DNA from: a virus
Direction: 5' to 3' (one strand)
Length of the DNA: 64,000 bases
Virus genome (UHGV): UHGV-0390448
A program made the translations under genes and the position numbers. The number at the start of each line of letters is the position of its first letter. Position 1 is the first letter of the stretch. Shown in pieces: positions 3,403 through 63,646 of the stretch. Below the pieces are notes generated by a model that worked only from the letters and a program-made list of their open reading frames with translations, made no database searches and was not told the DNA's origin.

Positions 3403-4833
3403 TTACGGATAAGTTATGCTGAACGTTGATGATTCCACGTCCAGATAAACAAAATCATTAAAGTACACAGCTTCTTTCATGTTCTGCGTAGCCACGTCAT
3501 AAGACAGGAACATATCCAGCGATTCGATTACTCGCCAGATATCTTTTACTTTGACCTGTGCATAACATTGCTGTGAGTCGTCATCACTCTGCAATAGCTG
3601 GCTAAATGACATGGAGTCTTTACCGAAGTTCTCCTCCAGTGCCGCTTTAATTGCAGTTAGCGCGTCATCCACCAGCACACTCTTTTTTACGATACCGGTA
3701 AATTTGATGTTGAACGGCTGTTCATTGGTGGCGACGTATTCGAACTTCTTATTCAGCTCATTAGGGATACTCTCAAGGGCTGATAATATCTCTGTTTTCA
3801 GAGCTTCCTGTGTTACGCCGGGCTTATGCCCACAAAAGAAAATTTTGTTGATATTACGCACATCAAAGCCCGTTATTTTCTCCTGTAGCGCCTCCCCCCA
3901 CACGTTAAGCCATGACGTGCCACTGACCACGTTCTGAATGAACTGGCGGTAATCACCGCCCCAAACAACCTGCTCATCGTAGGCCACATAATACTGCGCC
4001 CTGTTTCGGGTTTCCTCGGTAGTTTCCATGCCACCACCGCCAGAAATGATCGAATCGGTTTTTACTTCCAGTGATTCGACATACCCGGAGATGTTCCCTG
4101 CTGGTTCAAGTTTCTGGCCTTCAGCCAGCGTGTAATCACCGAGGCTGGCCATAATATCAATGCGTACCTGACTCCCTGCCGCTGGCATCATCCCCATTGA
4201 TCCATCACCGAAGCGCACGCCGATCTGTTCTGTCGGCTTATAAACCAACACATAATGTTTACTGTTATCCCTGGACATGCGGAATAGGGGGTTATGTGTC
4301 CATTTTTCCTCGACACCATTAGTTATCACGACAACTTCCAGGCTGGCGACTTCTGCTGTTAACTCACGGGAAAGTAACAACGTCAGGAATGGTGTTTCTT
4401 GCACCACGTCGAACGTTATGCTGACTGCTTCATGCTGTTTTACTTCTATGCCGGATACTGTTTCACCAGCAGGGATAACAACACTACTGCTTGTTGCAAT
4501 TGGTGTCTGGTCACTTGTCAGTAATTCAGCCCCTCCGGGTAGCGTAATATCCCTGTCGGTTTTGTTGGTGATGGAAACAGTGCCGTATGACGCATCGACC
4601 AAACGACCGACATAGCCACGGTCTTCCGCTGCCGCGAGAATACTTGCTCTGCGCGTCGCGGTGGAAATGAATCCTTCTGTAAGTGCACGGCTTGCAAATG
4701 TACGCGCAATATAAACAATCTGCGCGCCAAAAACGGACTGCATTTGAATAAACTGGCTGTTTACAAATCGCGCCCACCAGGGGTTTTCGTTCAGCTTGGC
4801 ATTAAACTTGTCCAGTAATTCGGTAATACTCAC
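3403..4833 (-). CDS. Putative baseplate protein (J-like by position)
   Basis: 476-aa ORF immediately downstream of the gp25/W-like gene with 4-nt overlap, the usual place for a baseplate J-type protein. Confidence 0.4.
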   Translation of the reverse strand: MSITELLDKFNAKLNENPWWARFVNSQFIQMQSVFGAQIVYIARTFASRALTEGFISTATRRASILAAAEDRGYVGRLVDASYGTVSITNKTDRDITLPGGAELLTSDQTPIATSSSVVIPAGETVSGIEVKQHEAVSITFDVVQETPFLTLLLSRELTAEVASLEVVVITNGVEEKWTHNPLFRMSRDNSKHYVLVYKPTEQIGVRFGDGSMGMMPAAGSQVRIDIMASLGDYTLAEGQKLEPAGNISGYVESLEVKTDSIISGGGGMETTEETRNRAQYYVAYDEQVVWGGDYRQFIQNVVSGTSWLNVWGEALQEKITGFDVRNINKIFFCGHKPGVTQEALKTEILSALESIPNELNKKFEYVATNEQPFNIKFTGIVKKSVLVDDALTAIKAALEENFGKDSMSFSQLLQSDDDSQQCYAQVKVKDIWRVIESLDMFLSYDVATQNMKEAVYFNDFVYLDVESSTFSITYP

Positions 4834-9127: not shown

Positions 9128-10075
9128 TTAATAATGGTTAGCCATCCATTCAGATCTAATTGATGGGATAAACTCTCTATTGAGAAATGGGGCGTACAGC
9201 GTGGTAGTCACGTCTGCACCCTCCTTAGCGTTTTTGCAGCGTTGTGGCGGTAGGATCAGGCGGCTTGTGCCTCGTTCAATAGCCATTTTTAAGCCGTGGC
9301 GAAGGTCTTTCTGCATGAGCTGAATGCGAGCTACCAGAGGGGTAAACTCGGTTTCCAGTGCCATGTTTTCAATGATATCGAATCGTCTGTTTGCAGCTTG
9401 TGTGAAGTCTTCTGGATCGTCGTTCAGAGATGTACACAAGGCCAACTCAGCTATGCGGAGACGAGCAACCTCAGCACTGTACTCTGGAGTTTTCATATCA
9501 GGCAAAGTGGCGCGCATACGCTCAAGCAATTCAGCGCCTTTCCCTGTTAGTGGTTTAAGCGTCCACTCGGTTGGTACTCCGTTTATAGGGACCATAGTTT
9601 TAATAAACGGCGGGACTGTCAGGATTTCTACCGTTTCGGCAAGGTCTGAAAGGTTAATATCTGCGTGATGAACGTTTCCACAGTGACCACACTCGTATGA
9701 GTAAGTCATTACGGCATCTGGTCTGGAATTGACAAAGATCCACCAAAGCGCGGTTCTGCGATCCTGAACTGTCCAGTTTGAGCTGTCGTTAATTTCGCCA
9801 TCTTGCATGGCGTTGAGGTATTCTGTTGTGGTTGCCTCGTCTTCTGCCGGATTGATGTCTGAATATTTCAGGGCATCTTTCACAGTAGGTGCATGAAACT
9901 GAATTTCTATTTCAGGCTGTGAAGGTAATGGGAATTTGGGAATGTTCAAGGATTCCTCCAGAAAAGTCGGTACTCGTTTGGCTGGAGGATAGGGAGTGTG
10001 TGATTTTGACTTTAACCTATTTATCCACAGGGTAGATCCAATAAATAGATCCCAAAGAGAACCAGTAAGATCCAA
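9128..10075 (-). CDS. Hypothetical protein (possible tail assembly protein by position)
   Basis: 315-aa ORF directly upstream of the tape measure gene; its 5-prime end overlaps the DnaA-box/GATC part of the replication origin. Confidence 0.45.
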   Translation of the reverse strand: MDLTGSLWDLFIGSTLWINRLKSKSHTPYPPAKRVPTFLEESLNIPKFPLPSQPEIEIQFHAPTVKDALKYSDINPAEDEATTTEYLNAMQDGEINDSSNWTVQDRRTALWWIFVNSRPDAVMTYSYECGHCGNVHHADINLSDLAETVEILTVPPFIKTMVPINGVPTEWTLKPLTGKGAELLERMRATLPDMKTPEYSAEVARLRIAELALCTSLNDDPEDFTQAANRRFDIIENMALETEFTPLVARIQLMQKDLRHGLKMAIERGTSRLILPPQRCKNAKEGADVTTTLYAPFLNREFIPSIRSEWMANHY

Positions 10076-10234
10076 AGAAGATCCCGGATCGCTGCGAGCC
10101 GCGCCATCACTGGCCTAAATGGAGATCAACATTGACTATGTGCGATTTAATGTTGACTATGTGCGATTTAATGTTGACTGTACGCGATTTAATGTTGACT
10201 ATATGCGATATAAACATTGACTGTATGCGATAAT
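10022..10234. promoter_or_regulatory. Plasmid replication origin: DnaA box, five GATC sites (four in AGATCC context), five ~21-bp direct iterons
   Basis: Perfect DnaA box TTATCCACA at 10022-10030; GATC at 10036, 10049, 10069, 10081, 10088; five tandem iterons (consensus aatgttgactatgtgcgattt) at 10131-10234, immediately upstream of repA. Confidence 0.8.
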
Positions 10235-10311
10235 TCTCTCAGCCCTCAGACGGCTGTGGATAAGTATCTTTCATTTGGCTATAAAGCCCCGTCAATCAAG
10301 GAAATAACAGG

Positions 10312-21704: not shown

Positions 21705-21880
21705 TTACTTCTCATATTTGTCTCTGATTTGTCTCAAAAGGGTATCATTGGTACATCATGTATCATCTAAGTCTCTTTTGTGTCTCTTTTGTGTCTCTAG
21801 TTTGATGCTTTTTACGCTATCTAACTTCTGGTCTTATTTTGTTTTCTCATATAAAATTCAATTCTTTCTCAAATGTGTCT
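21705..21880. promoter_or_regulatory. parC-like centromere/promoter repeats upstream of parM
   Basis: About seven copies of TTTGTCTC / TGTGTCTC within 170 bp in the position that parC occupies in R1-type parMRC loci. Confidence 0.55.
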
Positions 21881-21895
21881 CAGAAGTGGAGCAAT

Positions 21896-22855
21896 ATGAT
21901 GCGCATTTTTATCGACGATGGTTCTACCAATATCAAAATGCTGTGGGAACAAGACGGGGAAACTCGAACCCATATCTGTCCGAACAGTTTTAAACGTGGA
22001 TGGTCCGCCACATTTGGCGCAGGAAAGCCGTTTAACTACATCATTGATGACGAAAAATATTCATATGACTTGATCTCGCCGGATGTGCTGCCGACGAATA
22101 ACGTTGAATGGCAATACAGCCCGCTTAATGTGCTTGCTGTTCATCATGCCCTGCTTACAAGTGGCATTGAGCCTCAAGAAGTGGAAATAGTTGTCACGTT
22201 GCCACTGGCAGAGTTTTATGACGACGACGCACAATACAACATGAAAAATATTGAGCGGAAAAAGGCCAGCCTGATGCGACCAGTCACCCTTAACAAAGGT
22301 CAGGTTTTTACTATCAAAAAAGTGACTGTGCGCCCGGAGTCAATACCCGCAGGGATCGGTCTGTGCGACAGCCTTGTGCCAGCGCATTCTGTGCTTATTG
22401 TTGATCTTGGTGGGACTACTCTGGATGTGTCGATGGTCGCCGGGCAAATGACCGCCGTTTCTCGCGTATTTGGCGATTCTAATCTCGGCGTTTCGCTGGT
22501 AACTAAAGAGGTCAGACAGGCACTTGCAAAAGCGAATACCGAAACCTCTAATTATAATGTCGATCAATTAATCATTAATCGTGATGATGAGGATTATTTG
22601 ACCGACAATATTAACGATCCGTCTGCTATTGATGATGTTAAGAAAGCCATTTCGTCAAGCATAGAACGACTCCGTACACGCGTACTGGATGTGATCAGTG
22701 ATTTCAAAGGATACACGCATGTTATGGTCATTGGTGGCGGCGCGCCGCTTGTTGCTGATGCTATCCGTGAGCAGGTAAACATTCGTGACGATAGGTTTTT
22801 CGTTGCTGATGATCCACAACTTGCTCTTGTCTATGGTCTAAAATCTATCGGTTGA
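21896..22855 (+). CDS. parM: Actin-like plasmid segregation ATPase ParM/StbA
   Basis: N-terminus MMRIFIDDGSTNIKMLWEQ...NSFKRGW...VHHALLTSG closely parallels R1 ParM (MLVFIDDGSTNIKLQW...); start chosen at the ATGATG after RBS GTGGAG. Confidence 0.85.
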   Translation: MMRIFIDDGSTNIKMLWEQDGETRTHICPNSFKRGWSATFGAGKPFNYIIDDEKYSYDLISPDVLPTNNVEWQYSPLNVLAVHHALLTSGIEPQEVEIVVTLPLAEFYDDDAQYNMKNIERKKASLMRPVTLNKGQVFTIKKVTVRPESIPAGIGLCDSLVPAHSVLIVDLGGTTLDVSMVAGQMTAVSRVFGDSNLGVSLVTKEVRQALAKANTETSNYNVDQLIINRDDEDYLTDNINDPSAIDDVKKAISSSIERLRTRVLDVISDFKGYTHVMVIGGGAPLVADAIREQVNIRDDRFFVADDPQLALVYGLKSIG

Positions 22856-24551: not shown

Positions 24552-24575
24552 AAAGCCCCATATGGGGCTTTTCTT
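24552..24575. terminator. Bidirectional terminator between the ParG-like gene and dmt
   Basis: aaaagcccca-ta-tggggctttt: stem flanked by A-tract on one side and T-tract on the other. Confidence 0.7.
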
Positions 24576-26988
24576 AATTAAGCGTGGCTATAATGTCGTT
24601 AGCTATCATTCGCGTTGATGCTTTACAGGATACAGAGCGACGGGATGGCATAGGATACACCTTGAAGCCATTGCCAACGTAAAGTTCGCGAATGTTAGGC
24701 GCTCCACTGTTTGTTATCACAATTTTCGCCCCGCGTCTGTGAGCATCTACCAGCAGCGACACCAGCCGTTGTTGATCTTCAAACCTAAAGCTATGCCCTG
24801 AGTAATTTGTAAATCCGGTAGTGTCGGGCAATGGTTCATAGGGGGGATCGCAGAAAATCACATCATCATTCCCGGCAGCCTCAATTACACCAGCAAAATC
24901 GCCGGACACAAATTCCGAATACTTTGAAATATCGTCAGCCAGGAACGCCTCCATTTCCGCGAGAGGGAAGTAGGGAGATTTCTGCTTTCCATATCCGACG
25001 TTGAACTCTCCTTTACGGTTATAGCGAGTGACGCCATTAAAACAATGACGATTGAGATACAGGAACGCCGCTGCATGGTGAAGAGAATCATAAGCACCAT
25101 TGTTGAATGCATTGCGAACATTCAAAAATGCATCAGCAGAGTTGTAATCCTGAAAATAACGATATGCCAGTGTGATAAGAGAATACCCTTCACGCTGCAA
25201 TGTCTGATAGAAGTTAATCAGGTCACCGTTAATATCATTAAGCAGGTTGTGGCGAAAACCTGCATTCGTAAATACGGAACCGCCACCAACGAATGGTTCT
25301 ATTAACCGCTTGCCGTGTGGCAGATGCTCAAGCACTGTAGGCAACCCTGAGAATTTACCGCCTACCCATTTGAATATTGGGCGCTCATATTCATCCGGAG
25401 TCCGGAGTTTTCTAGTGTAGGTAATGGTATTTATTGTTTTTTGCTGTTTATCCGCCACGGTCGCAAGAATGCGACACCCAATCCATTGCATAACAGGAAC
25501 TGCCATGCTGTTGCCGATCGCTTTGTAACGCGGTCCGTCAGCTGCAAGCATCGCGGCCTCTTCTTCGCTTAAATCTGGATAGTGATTGCGCAGATATGCC
25601 AGTTCATCTGAATTAACTTTTTTACGCTTTTCCGTAGGGATCAACGTATGCCCATCAGGAAAACCTTGAAGTCTCTCACATTCGACAGGGGTAAGACGGC
25701 GGACAGCTACTTCTTCGTTTCTTACTTCATAGCAAACAGCAGTTGGATTTTGAGCCATTAGAGATGGTGAAGTATTCTTAGTTGCTGCATGTTGTGTACC
25801 ACTCATACGCTCAGGAAAAGCCAATGTAACAAGATGCCCATGGCTTTCTTGCTCACGCGCCCGCAATGTACCATGCCCTTCTGACCAAAAACCTGCTCCA
25901 GTGCTGCTAAAAACGGCAAGGTCAGTGGCATCTTTAAAGTCTCTTGCCTTTACTGTCGATGCGGTTTCATCGTCAATATATTCCCCAAATGCCGCCATCC
26001 TGAAACCGTTTACGGCTTTCGTCGATTTCATATCGGGGGACATGCCAGCGTGTAGGCATGGATTTAGGCTTTCGCCACTGATTGCAGCGCCATTTGCAGT
26101 AATGGCGGAAGCGATTTCCTTCTTTTTTCGGCTCGGCGCAATATTCCGGCGCACGCCTTCGAACTCAAAAAGTACCGTTGCGGGATCGAGGTCTGTTCGA
26201 GCACTTGCGACAACAAACACGCGTCGGCGTCGTTGTGCCACTCCGAAGTATTGGGCATCAAGGATTCTCCAGGCCACTTTTCGCTGCGGTCCATAAATAC
26301 AACCACACTGCGGCCACTTTGGAGCATGGCTACCGGTTTTGGCATCCCACCGCCAGAACGCGTTACTTTTTCGTGATTCAGGTCGATCACCAGGTTCGAA
26401 TGGCGCATTTTCTCCAGCCAATCCGGCAAGGAAACATCCGAATGCGTTATCTGCTGATGACAGGACTCCTGGGACATTTTCCCATACGATGACGGCTGGT
26501 TTGAGAAAGGACTCGGCCCGTTTGTCGTCAATTGCATTTGCAAGCTCCACATATTTTAAAGTTAGCGCGCCGCGCTCATCATCAAGCCCACCACGCAAGC
26601 CCGCGATACTGAATGCCTGACAAGGGGTTCCTCCGACGAGAACATCCGGGGCTTCAATTTTTCCAGCCCGGATCTTCTTAGCAAGTTTTGTCATGTCGCC
26701 AAGGTTGGTGACATGAGGCCAGTGGTGCGCAAGAACGGCAGACGGAAAAGGCTCGATTTCAGCAAACCAAGCCGGACGCATACCCAACGGTTCCCAGGCA
26801 ATGCTTGCGGCTTCAATTCCACTGCAAACCGAACCATATCGAAGATTAATGCTCTGCTTCACCGCCAATGGCCTCCACCAGCGAGCTAAACATCGCGGAT
26901 AATTCGCTTGTGAACAGAATGAAGTCAGCATCAAACCGCTGGGCAACATCTTCACGGTCGATGTCATCGTTCTGGTCATAGAGATCAT
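24574..26988 (-). CDS. dmt: Bifunctional DNA methyltransferase, N-terminal C5-cytosine (Dcm-like) fused to C-terminal N6-adenine (Dam-like) domain
   Basis: N-terminal part has CSGIEAASIAW (motif I-like) and GGTPCQAFSIAG (PCQ motif IV); C-terminal part has FVGGGSVF and DPPY. The true start is probably internal, since the ORF as drawn overlaps the upstream gene by about 140 nt. Confidence 0.8.
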   Translation of the reverse strand: MISMTRTMTSTVKMLPSGLMLTSFCSQANYPRCLARWWRPLAVKQSINLRYGSVCSGIEAASIAWEPLGMRPAWFAEIEPFPSAVLAHHWPHVTNLGDMTKLAKKIRAGKIEAPDVLVGGTPCQAFSIAGLRGGLDDERGALTLKYVELANAIDDKRAESFLKPAVIVWENVPGVLSSADNAFGCFLAGLAGENAPFEPGDRPESRKSNAFWRWDAKTGSHAPKWPQCGCIYGPQRKVAWRILDAQYFGVAQRRRRVFVVASARTDLDPATVLFEFEGVRRNIAPSRKKKEIASAITANGAAISGESLNPCLHAGMSPDMKSTKAVNGFRMAAFGEYIDDETASTVKARDFKDATDLAVFSSTGAGFWSEGHGTLRAREQESHGHLVTLAFPERMSGTQHAATKNTSPSLMAQNPTAVCYEVRNEEVAVRRLTPVECERLQGFPDGHTLIPTEKRKKVNSDELAYLRNHYPDLSEEEAAMLAADGPRYKAIGNSMAVPVMQWIGCRILATVADKQQKTINTITYTRKLRTPDEYERPIFKWVGGKFSGLPTVLEHLPHGKRLIEPFVGGGSVFTNAGFRHNLLNDINGDLINFYQTLQREGYSLITLAYRYFQDYNSADAFLNVRNAFNNGAYDSLHHAAAFLYLNRHCFNGVTRYNRKGEFNVGYGKQKSPYFPLAEMEAFLADDISKYSEFVSGDFAGVIEAAGNDDVIFCDPPYEPLPDTTGFTNYSGHSFRFEDQQRLVSLLVDAHRRGAKIVITNSGAPNIRELYVGNGFKVYPMPSRRSVSCKASTRMIANDIIATLN

Positions 26989-57869: not shown

Positions 57870-57900
57870 ACTGTCTAAAAAGATTGTTAGAAAATTAATT
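57870..57900. promoter_or_regulatory. Tandem operator-like sites between the recombinase gene and the downstream operon
   Basis: actgtctaaaaag + attgttagaaaattaatt; the second is a full match to the TGTTAGAAAAYTAA family. Confidence 0.55.
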
Positions 57901-58928
57901 CAGGAATCCATCAGGCGACTATTTGCACCAACGGATGCCCCGCTACGGCGCAAATATCGCATAAGTGTTTCGGGCTTTTTCCATGTGCCTTCCTGCATGA
58001 TCTCGACCATTGACACCTGTTTCTCAGCCATATCAATTGCCGCACCAACACGCGCACTATGACCTGTCCACGTCCGGTATCTTCCTTTGTTCGGCGTGGC
58101 ATCTCGCTTATTCAGCAATCCCCAGGCATCGCTGAATATTTTCTCCATCGCAGGAGCAGTAAGAGGCGTTGTCGTGATTCTGGCTTTATTACTGCGGTGT
58201 ATTGGCGGGAATAGCACCGCGTCCGGATGTTCACGAAGTCCGGACACCTCCAGCCAGTCGTTTAGCACGGCGGTAGTGCAACGAGAAAGCACCTTATCAA
58301 GTCCGGCGGCGGTCGTGATGGTCTTCGTGTGTGAAATATGCAGCGTTACAGTGTCACCTGTTTGGTCCAGATCTCCGACACGGATGCGCGAGATTTCTGA
58401 CATACGCATCAGGGTATTGTATGCCACGAAGAGAAACGCCCGATTGCGCAGGTCCACCAGCCGCTCGGAACGGGACAGCAATACGTCGAGCAATTTCAGA
58501 TCATCCCACCGCAACGGTATAGCCTGGCCTGTACGCTCGCCTTTTTCCGTTGCCGCTTCGCGCCGGATGCGCCGCATGGCCAGAGATACACTTTTATCGT
58601 CTGACAGCGGCGGTAGGCCGCATTGCGAAAGCAGCATGTTAAGCATGGCATAGTGCTTATCAATGGTGGTCGAAGCCAGATCGGCTTCATGCAACTGGAG
58701 AAGATACTCGCGGGCCATTTCCGGCGTAATCGGGAACCAGGGGCGCTGGCGCGAATTACACCACCGCGCCCAGGAATGAAAGACCAGACGGAGATCACGA
58801 AGTGTATTTGGGGCATAAGCTCCCTGGTCGTTCATGAACTGCATAAAGTTTTTTGCAGCTTCCTGGTATTCGGTGCCAATATCGCGCAGAAAACCGCCAG
58901 AACCGCCGGAGATAACTAGTTCACCCAT
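57900..58928 (-). CDS. Cre-family tyrosine recombinase (Dre-like)
   Basis: 342 aa, collinear with P1 Cre (WFP..PE..R.YLL.L, VSL.MRRIR, IRNLAF..AYNTL.R..EI.RIRV.D, W.GHSARVGAA.DMA, EIMQ.G.W, .Y.R.); about 45-50 percent identity by eye; catalytic R/H/R/W/Y positions conserved. Confidence 0.9.
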   Translation of the reverse strand: MGELVISGGSGGFLRDIGTEYQEAAKNFMQFMNDQGAYAPNTLRDLRLVFHSWARWCNSRQRPWFPITPEMAREYLLQLHEADLASTTIDKHYAMLNMLLSQCGLPPLSDDKSVSLAMRRIRREAATEKGERTGQAIPLRWDDLKLLDVLLSRSERLVDLRNRAFLFVAYNTLMRMSEISRIRVGDLDQTGDTVTLHISHTKTITTAAGLDKVLSRCTTAVLNDWLEVSGLREHPDAVLFPPIHRSNKARITTTPLTAPAMEKIFSDAWGLLNKRDATPNKGRYRTWTGHSARVGAAIDMAEKQVSMVEIMQEGTWKKPETLMRYLRRSGASVGANSRLMDS

Positions 58929-59079: not shown

Positions 59080-59113
59080 CTAACTTTAAATAATGCCAAT
59101 TATTTAAAGTTAG
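59080..59113. other. lox-type recombination site (rox-like): 13-bp inverted arms around an 8-bp spacer
   Basis: cTAACTTTAAATA-ATGCCAAT-TATTTAAAGTTAg; arms are perfect inverted repeats and share TAACTT...ATA with loxP arms; the 32-bp core equals the rox sequence as I recall it; 150 bp upstream of the recombinase gene. Confidence 0.85.
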
Positions 59114-60364: not shown

Positions 60365-60386
60365 GCCCCGAATCGCCGGGGCTTTT
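60365..60386 (+). terminator. Terminator between the convergent 59310 ORF and pacB
   Basis: gccccg-aatcgc-cggggc followed by tttt. Confidence 0.6.
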
Positions 60387-61893
60387 AAATGTCAATATCA
60401 GGAATATCCACTTCTGCCAACACCTGATCGCGGAATGTTGCTAGTTCTGCGCCAATGTCTTCATTAGCAGGCACGTAATCCACCAGCATAGTGAAGCAGT
60501 AGGTATCCCATCTGTCCGGCGACTTGATGTTTAACTTCTGCCGCATGTGCTCCTTGCGCATCATCGCCACCTTCCCTTCTTCGTTAAGCATATACGGGAT
60601 TTTTGATGCCTGATCGGCAGTTTTGGGGTCACTATCGATACGCATACGCCCTGATTTAATGGCATCCCCTGCCATAATATTGGCGTAAGCACGCTGATTG
60701 ACAAAGCGTTCTCTGTCTCTTAGCGCAAACATAGGTTTACCCCAACGGATGCGAACGGGATTAGCACCACGGCGGACAAGCTGCGCACACGTATCTGAAC
60801 CAAAGCCATCAGCATCCACAGCAATGGTGATGTTCGGGTATTTATCAGGAGTGCATTCGTTATAGATAAAGTCGGCAAAAGCCAACGGGTCCATAGTGCC
60901 TGGCATCTCCAGTATCTTAAAGTTCACAACACGTCGTTTCTCACGATAACCGGATACTTTGCATATATTGAGCACCGATTTGTCGCGACCATTACCGACG
61001 TCAGCGGTCGCTACCCAGCCCCAATCTTTCTCCAGCAACACTTTACGCCGTGCGGCGCGGTCGCACTCATCACGACCAAGCAAATACCCGTTAATTGCAC
61101 GCGGGAACTGGCCCAGCACCTTAACCATGTACTCCAGCGAATCCCTGCCGCCGTACTCCAGCAATTTCTCACGAATAAAGCTCGGTTCAACGAATGGAGA
61201 TTCTTCAGAGTTAAGGACTATTGCCGTCCAGACTCCTTCCGGATTGCCTTCTGCCTTTGCCCTTGAATGGTGGGATTCATAAAAGTAACCGCTTGGACGC
61301 GTAGGCTGGGAAAGCATGAGCATACGGTTATCTTTCTGCGTTAACGCCCCCGTCATGACGTTAATCGCCTTATCTGATATGCCCGATGCTTCATCAAGGA
61401 TTAGCAGTAAATGCTCCGCGTGCTCCCCCGCCAGTGCCTCTTCGTTACCGAGTCGATAACCTTTACAGAGCACTTCCCATATCCCTTTACGGGAACGCTC
61501 ATAAAACATGGTGTCAGACAGGACAAAATAGGTCTGTAACCAGCCGTGGCGCTTAACAGCATTCGCCCAAAACTGTTTCACGTATTTGAATACGCCTGTT
61601 TTTACCTGGCCTATTTTGTTCGCAACAATAATGACGCGGGCGTCGGGGAACAGGATCATAAAAATTAGTAGCAACATCGCGGTAAGGGACGACTTACCCG
61701 TTCCGTGTCCGGACGTAACGGTCGTCCTGCTCCCCGTCTCCTGCACTGACTGAATGATCTGCTGCTGCTGGTGGGAGGGGAACATCCCAAAAATATCGAC
61801 AACCGCCTGGGTAAAGTTGTATCGATACCTGATAACCATATCGCGCCAACGTGGATCACTGGTGACGCACTTAATCTTACGACCACCAGCCAT
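60385..61893 (-). CDS. pacB: Terminase large subunit (PacB-like)
   Basis: 502 aa; N-terminal ATPase with Walker A-like SGHGTGKSS and Walker B LLLILDEA, C-terminal RNaseH-like nuclease region with conserved acidic residues; start overlaps the upstream stop (TAATG). Confidence 0.8.
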   Translation of the reverse strand: MAGGRKIKCVTSDPRWRDMVIRYRYNFTQAVVDIFGMFPSHQQQQIIQSVQETGSRTTVTSGHGTGKSSLTAMLLLIFMILFPDARVIIVANKIGQVKTGVFKYVKQFWANAVKRHGWLQTYFVLSDTMFYERSRKGIWEVLCKGYRLGNEEALAGEHAEHLLLILDEASGISDKAINVMTGALTQKDNRMLMLSQPTRPSGYFYESHHSRAKAEGNPEGVWTAIVLNSEESPFVEPSFIREKLLEYGGRDSLEYMVKVLGQFPRAINGYLLGRDECDRAARRKVLLEKDWGWVATADVGNGRDKSVLNICKVSGYREKRRVVNFKILEMPGTMDPLAFADFIYNECTPDKYPNITIAVDADGFGSDTCAQLVRRGANPVRIRWGKPMFALRDRERFVNQRAYANIMAGDAIKSGRMRIDSDPKTADQASKIPYMLNEEGKVAMMRKEHMRQKLNIKSPDRWDTYCFTMLVDYVPANEDIGAELATFRDQVLAEVDIPDIDI

Positions 61894-63257
61894 TAGTCAT
61901 CCTCCGGCTGGTCTATCGCAATCTCGTCATCTACAGCATCAAAACCGGTATCCCCCGCGTCATAATCACCGTAGATATCAGCCGTGGCGGAAGGGTCTAT
62001 ATTCAGGTCTTCATCATTGGCCTCAAATTCACCGGCTTTACGTTCTCCGTTCCGGTCGTAATCCCCCATCCCAAGCCTATCAACGATTTTCGCTACTTCA
62101 GCCCGGCGTTGTGCAAGCCATTGTGGGAGTCCAGCTTGTTGCTCGGCAAACTGCTTCGCCTCTTTATCCAGTTGCTCATCATCAACATCGTTAACGTCAG
62201 AAACCGGAGGCTCCAGAAGTGAGATCGCTTTTGCCGCTCGTGCCGCCAGGATAGCCGGGACACTGACGCCCTGCCGCTCGATATATTCAGCAACGCCTAT
62301 ATCGTCCAGCTCCTCGCGCTCACGCATACGTATAGCGGCGGCGATAACTCTGGCGGCGCGTGCGTCAGCGCCAATGCGATACTCAATCTCTTTGCCACGC
62401 TGCTCGGCTTGCAGGCGAGTAATCGCCAGTTTTTCTCTGGCCTCAGCCTCTCTGAATGCCTGCTGGCGCGCGCCCTGCGCAAGTTTTTCATCCCCCTGGC
62501 GTAGCTTCTGCTCGGTCTGGTAGATGGCAGCCAACCTACTGATAAAGTCATTCATGTAGTAGGCCGCATCGCTTATTAGGCCGAGAAGACGCTGCCCTGG
62601 GTGCATTCCCTCTGGCTGTGTATCGCCGAGGGCGTCAATCTCTTCCTGTAGTCGTTCCGCTTCCTGGTCAACGATGGCCTGATACTGAATTGCTCGTTCC
62701 TGCGCCATCTGTATCGCAAGTCGTAAATGTTCAGTCGCGCCGTTCTTCATCATCTCACGGGCGACGTTGGTGGCAGGCAAAGTGGCGCTTTGAGCTGATG
62801 AGTCAGGGATCATTTGCAATGATCCCTTGTTTCGTTGGGCTTTTTCGCTGCTTTTAGGGATCATTTCCCCCATTTCATCACAAAATGATCCCCTTACATC
62901 CTTGTGTATCTTATTGTTATTACTTGGCTTTTCTTTGTGATCCGCATTTTGTTTTTGCGGCATGGCGCGGAATCGTCCACCAGCTAACGATTTGTCAGTT
63001 TTTGTAAATTCTGTGCTTTTATCAGCCTTTTTTTGCTCTTTTTTTGGGCTTGTGGCGCTACTTTTTGCGCGCTGTTTTGTACTTTTCCCGGCAGCCTTAG
63101 CTTTCGCTTTAACCTCGTTTTTTTTCATATTGAGATGCTTTCTGGCGGTGTTAAAGCTGAGGTCATGCTGCTCGCAATATTCTTTTATGGTGATCCCGGT
63201 TTCTTCTCTTAACTCCAGGAACTTAGCTCGATGCGCTTCCCAGTTAATTAACGTCAT
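61893..63257 (-). CDS. pacA: Terminase small subunit-like protein (PacA-like) containing the candidate pac site
   Basis: 454 aa, N-terminal HTH-like region, immediately upstream of and translationally coupled to the large-subunit gene; GATC-heptamer cluster inside the coding sequence. Confidence 0.6.
   Translation of the reverse strand: MTLINWEAHRAKFLELREETGITIKEYCEQHDLSFNTARKHLNMKKNEVKAKAKAAGKSTKQRAKSSATSPKKEQKKADKSTEFTKTDKSLAGGRFRAMPQKQNADHKEKPSNNNKIHKDVRGSFCDEMGEMIPKSSEKAQRNKGSLQMIPDSSAQSATLPATNVAREMMKNGATEHLRLAIQMAQERAIQYQAIVDQEAERLQEEIDALGDTQPEGMHPGQRLLGLISDAAYYMNDFISRLAAIYQTEQKLRQGDEKLAQGARQQAFREAEAREKLAITRLQAEQRGKEIEYRIGADARAARVIAAAIRMREREELDDIGVAEYIERQGVSVPAILAARAAKAISLLEPPVSDVNDVDDEQLDKEAKQFAEQQAGLPQWLAQRRAEVAKIVDRLGMGDYDRNGERKAGEFEANDEDLNIDPSATADIYGDYDAGDTGFDAVDDEIAIDQPEDD
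62805..62946. other. Candidate pac site: five GATC sites in TGATCC(C)/GGGATCA heptamers as inverted pairs
   Basis: agggatcatt-tgc-aatgatccct (62805-62827), tagggatcattt ... aaatgatcccct (62855-62894), tgtgatccgc (62937-62946); analogous to the hexanucleotide/Dam-site architecture of the P1 pac site. Confidence 0.5.
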
Positions 63258-63646
63258 AGGGAAGCCTCACGTTTTTTCACAGCGGCGTTCCATAGCTGGT
63301 TAGTCATCGCCACCAACTGACGCTGCTCCTTTCGTAATTGAGCTTCTATCTTTCGGTTGGTGTTTTTCACCAACAGCCGACCGAATTCAGGAGTGCGCCC
63401 GCGCACCTTGAACTGGTATCCATTCAGGCCATGTAGCCAATATTTCCGGGGGTATACGCGGTCGTCTATTTCGCAAATGGCACGACTGGAACGAACAAAA
63501 AAACGTATGATGTTATTTACGTTTACGCGCGACACATGAAGGTGAGGATATTGTGCTTTTGCACGGCTGGTGATTTCGGTGACCGTCAGATAGCAGTCAG
63601 CCCTGATCATGATATCCGCTATTTCGGCGCTACTGATTTGCTCCAT
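63254..63646 (-). CDS. Hypothetical protein upstream of pacA (late-promoter-activator position)
   Basis: 130-aa ORF with ATGA overlap to pacA; operator-like site about 80 nt upstream; Lpa-like role inferred only from P1 gene order. Confidence 0.35.
   Translation of the reverse strand: MEQISSAEIADIMIRADCYLTVTEITSRAKAQYPHLHVSRVNVNNIIRFFVRSSRAICEIDDRVYPRKYWLHGLNGYQFKVRGRTPEFGRLLVKNTNRKIEAQLRKEQRQLVAMTNQLWNAAVKKREASL

Follow-up and report, generated by a model that had tools for sequence, protein, structure and literature searches.

The 64,000-nucleotide stretch analyzed here, which we call the window, belongs to the virus genome UHGV-0390448 and carries a DNA-packaging module on its minus strand, with a cluster of five GATC elements (62805..62945) inside the gene pacA. 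pacA (61893..63257) codes for a small-terminase-like pacase subunit of 454 aa, assigned by PHROG matches and by homology with the PacA proteins of phages D6 and P1, and the cluster occupies its codons 106-150. The next gene of the module, pacB (60385..61893, minus strand), encodes the large terminase or pacase catalytic subunit (502 aa), which is 56% identical to P1 PacB and matches the terminase large subunit family phrog_2 at 4e-41. On the other side lies the late-promoter activator gene lpa (63254..63646, minus strand; Pfam BPP1_LPA, 3.7e-50), whose stop codon shares 4 nt with the pacA start codon (ATGA, 63254-63257), as in D6. A search upstream of pacA for the P1 late-promoter "-22 box" returned only matches with two mismatches, which are uninformative. 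After pacB come a c1-like gene, the 32-bp site rox (TAACTTTAAATAATGCCAATTATTTAAAGTTA, 59081-59112), which is an exact copy of D6 rox and lies about 3.8 kb from the GATC cluster, and, adjoining rox, a Dre/Cre-like tyrosine recombinase of 342 aa (57900-58928). Over lpa-pacA the window is 77% identical to D6 at the nucleotide level, and it is 99.3% identical to an E. coli plasmid from a pig (NZ_AP027414.1). The window is a D6-like phage-plasmid with the synteny lpa-pacA-pacB-c1-rox-dre; the whole phage-plasmid measures about 90 kb, and the 26 kb beyond the window were taken from NZ_AP027414.1.

A sequence-only reading of the window had pointed to five GATC sites within 140 bp of the small-terminase-like gene as a candidate packaging-initiation (pac) site, and the sites themselves are confirmed by the sequence and by a script, as is their gene by the homology of pacA. 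They lie at 62808, 62821, 62859, 62887 and 62939, and each is part of a TGATCC on one strand or the other. Numbered in the order of the coding strand, at pacA codons 106, 123, 132, 145 and 149, the elements are as follows: element 1 (62938..62944, plus strand; TGATCCG, GATC at 62939-62942, pacA nt 316), which is the weaker match; element 2 (62884..62893, plus strand; AATGATCCCC, GATC at 62887-62890, nt 368); element 3 (62856..62865, minus strand; AATGATCCCT, GATC at 62859-62862, nt 396), the inverted partner of element 2; element 4 (62818..62827, plus strand; AATGATCCCT, GATC at 62821-62824, nt 434); and element 5 (62805..62814, minus strand; AATGATCCCT, GATC at 62808-62811, nt 447), the inverted partner of element 4. 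A 9-10-nt element, AATGATCCC(T), is repeated at four of the five sites, which form two inverted pairs, and the fifth, weaker one reads GTGATCCG. The three exact copies of AATGATCCCT are the only ones in the window, and AATGATCCCC occurs once. A repeat search recovered both pairs with 10-nt arms that are 100% complementary, one with a 3-nt spacer (62805-62814 / 62818-62827) and the other with a 16-nt spacer (62857-62866 / 62883-62892). The two inverted pairs noticed earlier therefore stand, although the repeated unit is not the heptamer described then, since its core extends over 9-10 nt. GATC-to-GATC spacings of 52, 28, 38 and 13 nt give a 1+4 layout with no left array; together the five elements span 135 bp, with a widest internal gap of 48 nt. 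Between elements 1 and 2 lies a 44-bp AT-rich gap (62894..62937, about 70% AT), which contains a partly conserved island, AATAACAATAAGATA (62907-62921).

To ask how often such a cluster arises by chance, we generated 2000 dinucleotide-preserving shuffles of the window. At least five GATC within 140 bp were found somewhere in 27% of the shuffles, and we therefore rejected the GATC count by itself as evidence. None of the 2000 shuffles contained five TGATCC within 140 bp, and none contained four TGATCCC within that distance (maximum 2). The remaining 26 kb, read from NZ_AP027414.1, hold no comparable TGATCC cluster, and a P1-type TGATCA cluster is found nowhere in the window. The repeat cluster is non-random, and it is the extended motif, not the number of GATC sites, that carries the significance.

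The protein encoded across the cluster matches phrog_1711 ("terminase") with an E value of 9e-168 and is 74% identical in amino acids to D6 PacA. A tblastn search of a phage collection with PacA returned D6 alone at E <= 1e-5, P1 PacA being too divergent. PacA falls into no Pfam or NCBIfam family, and sequence and profile searches of the PDB with the whole protein and with its N terminus gave nothing significant. Matches to helix-turn-helix (HTH) motifs at the N terminus are sub-threshold and occur in 8 of 12 PacA members. In a single-sequence AlphaFold model, whose overall confidence is low (mean predicted local distance difference test score, pLDDT, 60.5), a three-helix N terminus (pLDDT 82-89) is followed by an unstructured segment at residues 61-166 (pLDDT <50) and by long C-terminal helices. 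On this model, residues about 61-166 probably form a disordered linker, and it is this segment that the element-bearing DNA encodes; a DNA signal may be tolerated within pacA for that reason.

We then compared pacA genes at the DNA level, using a codon alignment of five D6-like lineages whose PacA proteins are 53-75% identical. Codons about 45-165 are the most variable stretch of the gene, within which the GATC codons form conserved islands. Among four D6-like lineages (PacA 67-75% identical), 20 of 20 GATC columns are invariant, compared with only 43% of the other linker columns; of the 4-column windows, only 13% show no variation at all. In a set of 35 distinct full-length pacA genes of the D6-like type, the GATC is kept in all 35 at elements 5, 4 and 1 and in 34 at elements 3 and 2, and pacA GATCs outside the conserved set are lineage-specific. 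Synonymous positions within the GATC tetramer are fixed across the aligned D6-like lineages, and a Gly/Arg exchange at element 4 retains GGA/AGA-TCA. In the Enterobacter relative (L033/L083), GGGATCA is encoded in all three reading phases; this relative lacks the GATC of element 1, and the homologues of elements 2-5 make up the right-hand cluster in L083. As far as the alignments can tell, the conservation at these elements sits on the DNA and not on the protein.

These comparisons bear directly on the view that PacA needs the encoded peptide motifs (G-S ... M-I-P twice, and D-H), the GATCs being a by-product of codon choice. The elements are indeed in frame, and all D6-like PacA proteins share M-I-P, G/R-S and D-H. 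However, the linker around the elements is hypervariable and predicted to be disordered, Gly-to-Arg swaps keep the DNA motif while losing the residue, synonymous third positions within GATC are invariant, and GGGATCA is read in three frames in L033/L083. More distant PacA proteins also hold GATC clusters but encode other peptides there, such as D-H and D-Q repeats. We consider a peptide-level explanation very unlikely.

Inverted repeats in a coding region could alternatively act on expression, as a Dam/SeqA-sensitive or structural regulatory element: for example mRNA hairpins influencing pacA-pacB translation, an antisense terminator or the operator of another regulator. RNA from the coding strand at 62780-62960 has a better fold than shuffled sequences (z = -3.2), 62805-62827 on the plus strand is picked up by a terminator scan, and a perfect 10-bp inverted repeat resembles an operator. 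Yet the hairpin arms change one-sidedly in D6 and L039, and we rejected the RNA-structure reading because relatives show no compensatory changes; the Enterobacter relative, moreover, does not have the same inverted spacing. The terminator-like match runs antisense to pacA, with only four G-C pairs and a T tract that is weak; matches of this kind are equally frequent in shuffles. No promoter-like site was found over the cluster, and the promoter and terminator scan did not rise above shuffle expectation. As the family-wide pattern described below also agrees with the experimentally defined P1 pac, a regulatory role in place of a packaging role appears unlikely.

The pac site of phage P1 is textbook knowledge and provides the natural reference for this pattern. 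It comprises 161-162 bp within pacA, as given in PMC10028697, which cites Sternberg & Coulby 1987 and Skorupski et al. 1992, 1994, so that the P1 GATC cluster in pacA is an experimentally defined pac (PMC10028697; PhageTerm PMC5557969). In the P1 sequence (L002), four TGATCA on the left are followed by TGATCG, TGATCA and TGATCA on the right, with GATC spacings of 7, 12, 15, 96, 12 and 11 and about 90 nt between the hexamer clusters; cleavage maps to L002 4805-4814 and the integration host factor (IHF) site to 4785-4797 (PMC10028697; PMC5557969). The P1 element was given correctly in the earlier reading as TGATCA/G, and the TGATCC(C) of the window differs from it.

To place the cluster in the wider PacA family, loci were fetched from genomes and viral contigs via PacB alignment and the upstream pacA was extracted. 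The PacA proteins were clustered at 90% identity into 28 clusters, 25 of which were compared; the three left out contained only truncated pacA open reading frames (672-981 nt; L051, L109, L123). In these 25 lineages, P1 included, GATC density reaches 16.0/kb at pacA nt 100-520, compared with 4.0/kb over the remainder of pacA and 4.2/kb over pacB, and at least four GATCs fall within nt 100-520 in 24 of the 25. The majority are bipartite: a left array, often with a 12-bp period, is separated by a gap of about 80-200 bp from a right cluster. Two classes of element are apparent: TGATCA (or CGATCA / GCGATCA) in P1, Pantoea, Serratia, Xenorhabdus and others, and GGGATCA/TGATCCC in the window, D6, L081, L032, the Enterobacter lineages L033/L083 (3+5) and L085 (5+1). 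The putative recognition helix of PacA reads ..NTARR(E/Y)L in 18 of 18 A-flank lineages and ..NTARKHL, ..STGRKKL or ..NTLRKHF in 7 of 7 C-flank lineages, a correspondence suggestive of element class tracking the recognition helix.

The survey also revealed several unusual arrays. The loci L036, L041-L044, L103, L106, L038 and L048 carry 4-6 (T/A)GATCA elements with a strict 12-bp period at pacA nt ~150-260; such 12-bp arrays, found in Pantoea, Serratia and relatives, translate into D-H / D-Q dipeptide repeats, and their regularity far exceeds that of the P1 left cluster. L121 (IMGVR_UViG_3300027985_000978) has 14 GATCs in about 330 nt (pacA nt 187-520), including seven GCGATCA elements 16-26 nt apart, together with a divergent recognition helix, ..NSVRREF. 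The distant PacA gene of L117 (IMGVR_UViG_3300011830_000001) contains only two composite elements, TGATCCGATC, at nt 157-166 and 362-371, inverted and 200 nt apart, a minimal symmetric form of the arrangement.

On a further alternative view, the true D6-like pac might lie elsewhere, or further upstream in pacA, with the cluster serving as an accessory pacase-binding or autoregulatory array. In favor of this idea, the left array present in relatives (3+5 in L083, 5+1 in L085) is missing, the geometry is unlike that of P1, and a sixth conserved GGGATCA is found 250 nt upstream of the cluster. This outlying TGATCCC (63191..63197, plus strand) falls at pacA codon 21, in the HTH-coding segment; its GATC is kept in 35 of 35 D6-like sequences and absent from L083. 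The protein segment that it encodes (G-I-T) is itself well conserved, and this site may either belong to pac or only reflect that conservation. In the Serratia lineages, a similar sequence, GGGATCAC, is found at pacA codon 18. Against a location elsewhere, element clusters occur nowhere else in the whole phage-plasmid, the right-hand cluster of L083 corresponds by homology to sites 2-5 and, as a weak indication, one contig break in a draft genome lies within the cluster. We regard a pac site outside the cluster as quite improbable.

A P1-like pac would be expected to operate together with GATC methylation, and the window encodes a Dmt-like bifunctional DNA methyltransferase of 804 aa (24574..26988, minus strand), in which a C5-cytosine domain at the N terminus is combined with a Dam-family N6-adenine domain at the C terminus. 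The product matches Pfam MethyltransfD12 (2.5e-50) and DNA_methylase (6.7e-37) and scores 221 bits against TIGR00571 dam (cutoff 114.85). By its domain content, this gene is a predicted phage-encoded source of GATC methylation, like P1 Dmt.

Dam sites also cluster at replication origins, which raises the idea that the array is a replication or segregation site, origin-like and controlled by SeqA/Dam, that happens to sit in pacA. Dam-controlled origins typically have GATC clusters, and the plasmid origin of the window has one of its own. Next to the pacA cluster, however, there is no DnaA box, no iterons and no AT-rich unwinding element; the origin-like cluster is elsewhere and AGATCC-based, and in all lineages examined the position of the array is linked to pacA. 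An origin function for the pacA cluster is extremely unlikely. The separate region at 10020-10240 looks like a P1-type plasmid origin: a DnaA box (TTATCCACA, 10023-10031) is followed by GATC heptamers and then by five iterons in direct orientation, each about 19 bp long (ATGTTGACTRTRYGCGAT). Its heptamers, four AGATCC(C/A) plus a GGATCG at 10035-10127, place 6 GATC in 93 bp and form the densest GATC cluster of the window. P1 partitions by a ParA/ParB system. The window encodes instead a ParM/StbA-type actin-like partition protein (21839-22855, plus strand; StbA_N 2.4e-69), and its plasmid-maintenance module appears to differ from that of P1.

Based on where the cluster lies and how it is conserved, on the comparison across the PacA family and on the Dam-family methylase encoded in the window, we consider it likely that the cluster is a packaging-initiation site of the P1 type, gated by Dam methylation, with an altered element and layout. 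Several observations weigh against this interpretation. P1 PacA is only 21% identical to the PacA of the window (pairwise E 2e-8), and the P1 site is built as 4+3 around a core of about 90 bp that holds the cleavage sites, in contrast with the 1+4 layout found here. No IHF consensus, WATCAANNNNTTR, was found with at most one mismatch in 62700-63260, a weak test given that IHF sites are degenerate; the stretch between elements 1 and 2 contains a conserved TATCTTATTGTTA with two mismatches to this consensus. Independent D6-like lineages number only about 4-5, and the conservation statistics overstate their independence; likewise, the co-variation of helix and element probably goes back to perhaps two independent transitions. 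Finally, a metagenome scan of 13 loci found no contig ending in pacA. The proposal that the cluster mirrors the P1 pac is supported by its location, conservation, family pattern and associated methylase, and the layout departs from 4+3.

For a pac site of this kind, we infer PacA binding, methylation dependence, cut position and packaging direction by analogy with P1 (PMC10028697) and the work of Sternberg and Skorupski. The N-terminal HTH of PacA would bind AATGATCCC(T), present as two head-to-head pairs and one weaker upstream element; the head-to-head mode of binding is suggested by the two inverted pairs. Full adenine methylation of the GATCs of the elements, by host Dam and the phage Dmt-like enzyme, would license cleavage by PacA/PacB, such that hemimethylated, newly replicated sites would be bound and not cut. 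PacB would cut close by; if a cut needs elements to either side of it, as it does in P1, one candidate position is the AT-rich gap that separates elements 1 and 2. That this gap (62894-62937) forms a cleavage or bending core is speculative. Headful packaging would then head towards pacB-c1-rox, so that the terminal redundancy of the first headful would include rox. A single draft genome, IMG 2537562191 (n = 1), contains a D6-type element split over two contigs (the end of L152 and the start of L029 and L109) that overlap by 10 nt (ATGAAAATAA) directly 3′ of the element-1 GATC, at a position corresponding to window ~62929-62938. The break may represent a physical end or an assembly artefact.

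We also advance, as a tentative extension that is somewhat doubtful at present, that the recognition helix of PacA (..ARR.. or ..ARK..) may have co-evolved with the flank of the Dam element (TGATCA or TGATCC), that the D6 class may read asymmetric 9-10-nt head-to-head pairs and cut the gap between elements 1 and 2, and that the pac cassette may persist in DNA coding for a disordered linker. If true, nature would have provided orthogonal, methylation-gated pairs of pac and pacase. Phage-plasmids of the D6-like type occur commonly in E. coli and Salmonella, and our plasmid search retrieved 111 records with D6-like elements by DNA and 140 by PacA protein. A known pac would allow the prediction of transducible DNA, including pseudo-pac sites, as well as the construction of D6-based phagemids orthogonal to P1-based ones, and would offer a natural comparison set for the evolution of terminase DNA specificity and Dam gating.

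One of the closest known systems is D6 (AY753669, MF356679), which shares the module, the five GATC elements at the same codons and an identical rox. Apart from the 77% nucleotide identity, the difference lies in the elements, which are more degenerate in D6 (GAGATCA, GGGATCT), so that the perfect 10-bp palindromes are specific to the lineage of the window. Neither of the two D6 GenBank records carries a pac annotation, and we found no description of a D6-type pac in the open-access literature, although a prior one is possible in the D6 papers (Sauer & McDermott 2004; Gilcrease & Casjens 2018).

Other headful phages and Dam-controlled origins offer further comparisons. In phage P22 (gene 3) and in SPP1 (pacL/pacC/pacR), headful pac sites lie within the small-terminase gene. 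The cluster would share with them its placement inside the gene of its recognizer, along with repeated boxes for the small terminase subunit (TerS) near an imprecise cut. To our knowledge, pac sites of the P22/SPP1 type are neither built from Dam sites nor gated by methylation, and their TerS proteins are unrelated in sequence to PacA, save for weak N-terminal PHROG matches. P1-type oriR and oriC, for their part, contain arrays of GATC heptamers whose methylation state gates a DNA transaction. The array of this type in the window (10035-10127) differs from the pacA cluster by its DnaA box and iterons and by AGATCC(C/A) heptamers in direct orientation.

With P1, the window shares a repeat cluster located in the 5′-terminal third of pacA and ahead of pacB, several short repeats each containing a Dam site, a phage-encoded Dam-family methylase, and the gene order lpa-pacA-pacB-c1-recombination site, in which lox (P1) or rox (window) lies about 4 kb from the site. 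In contrast, the P1 element is a palindromic TGATCA/G, whereas that of the window, AATGATCCC(T), is asymmetric and occurs in both orientations, and P1 has an 85-nt gap between lpa and pacA that carries the late promoter LPpac, whereas lpa overlaps pacA in the window. By its element, its layout, the lack of a match to the IHF consensus and the lpa overlap, the cluster is a variant of the P1 kind and not a strict member of it. Taken together, these comparisons extend the P1 paradigm to a divergent branch and overturn nothing, and our survey suggests that this paradigm holds across the whole PacA family.

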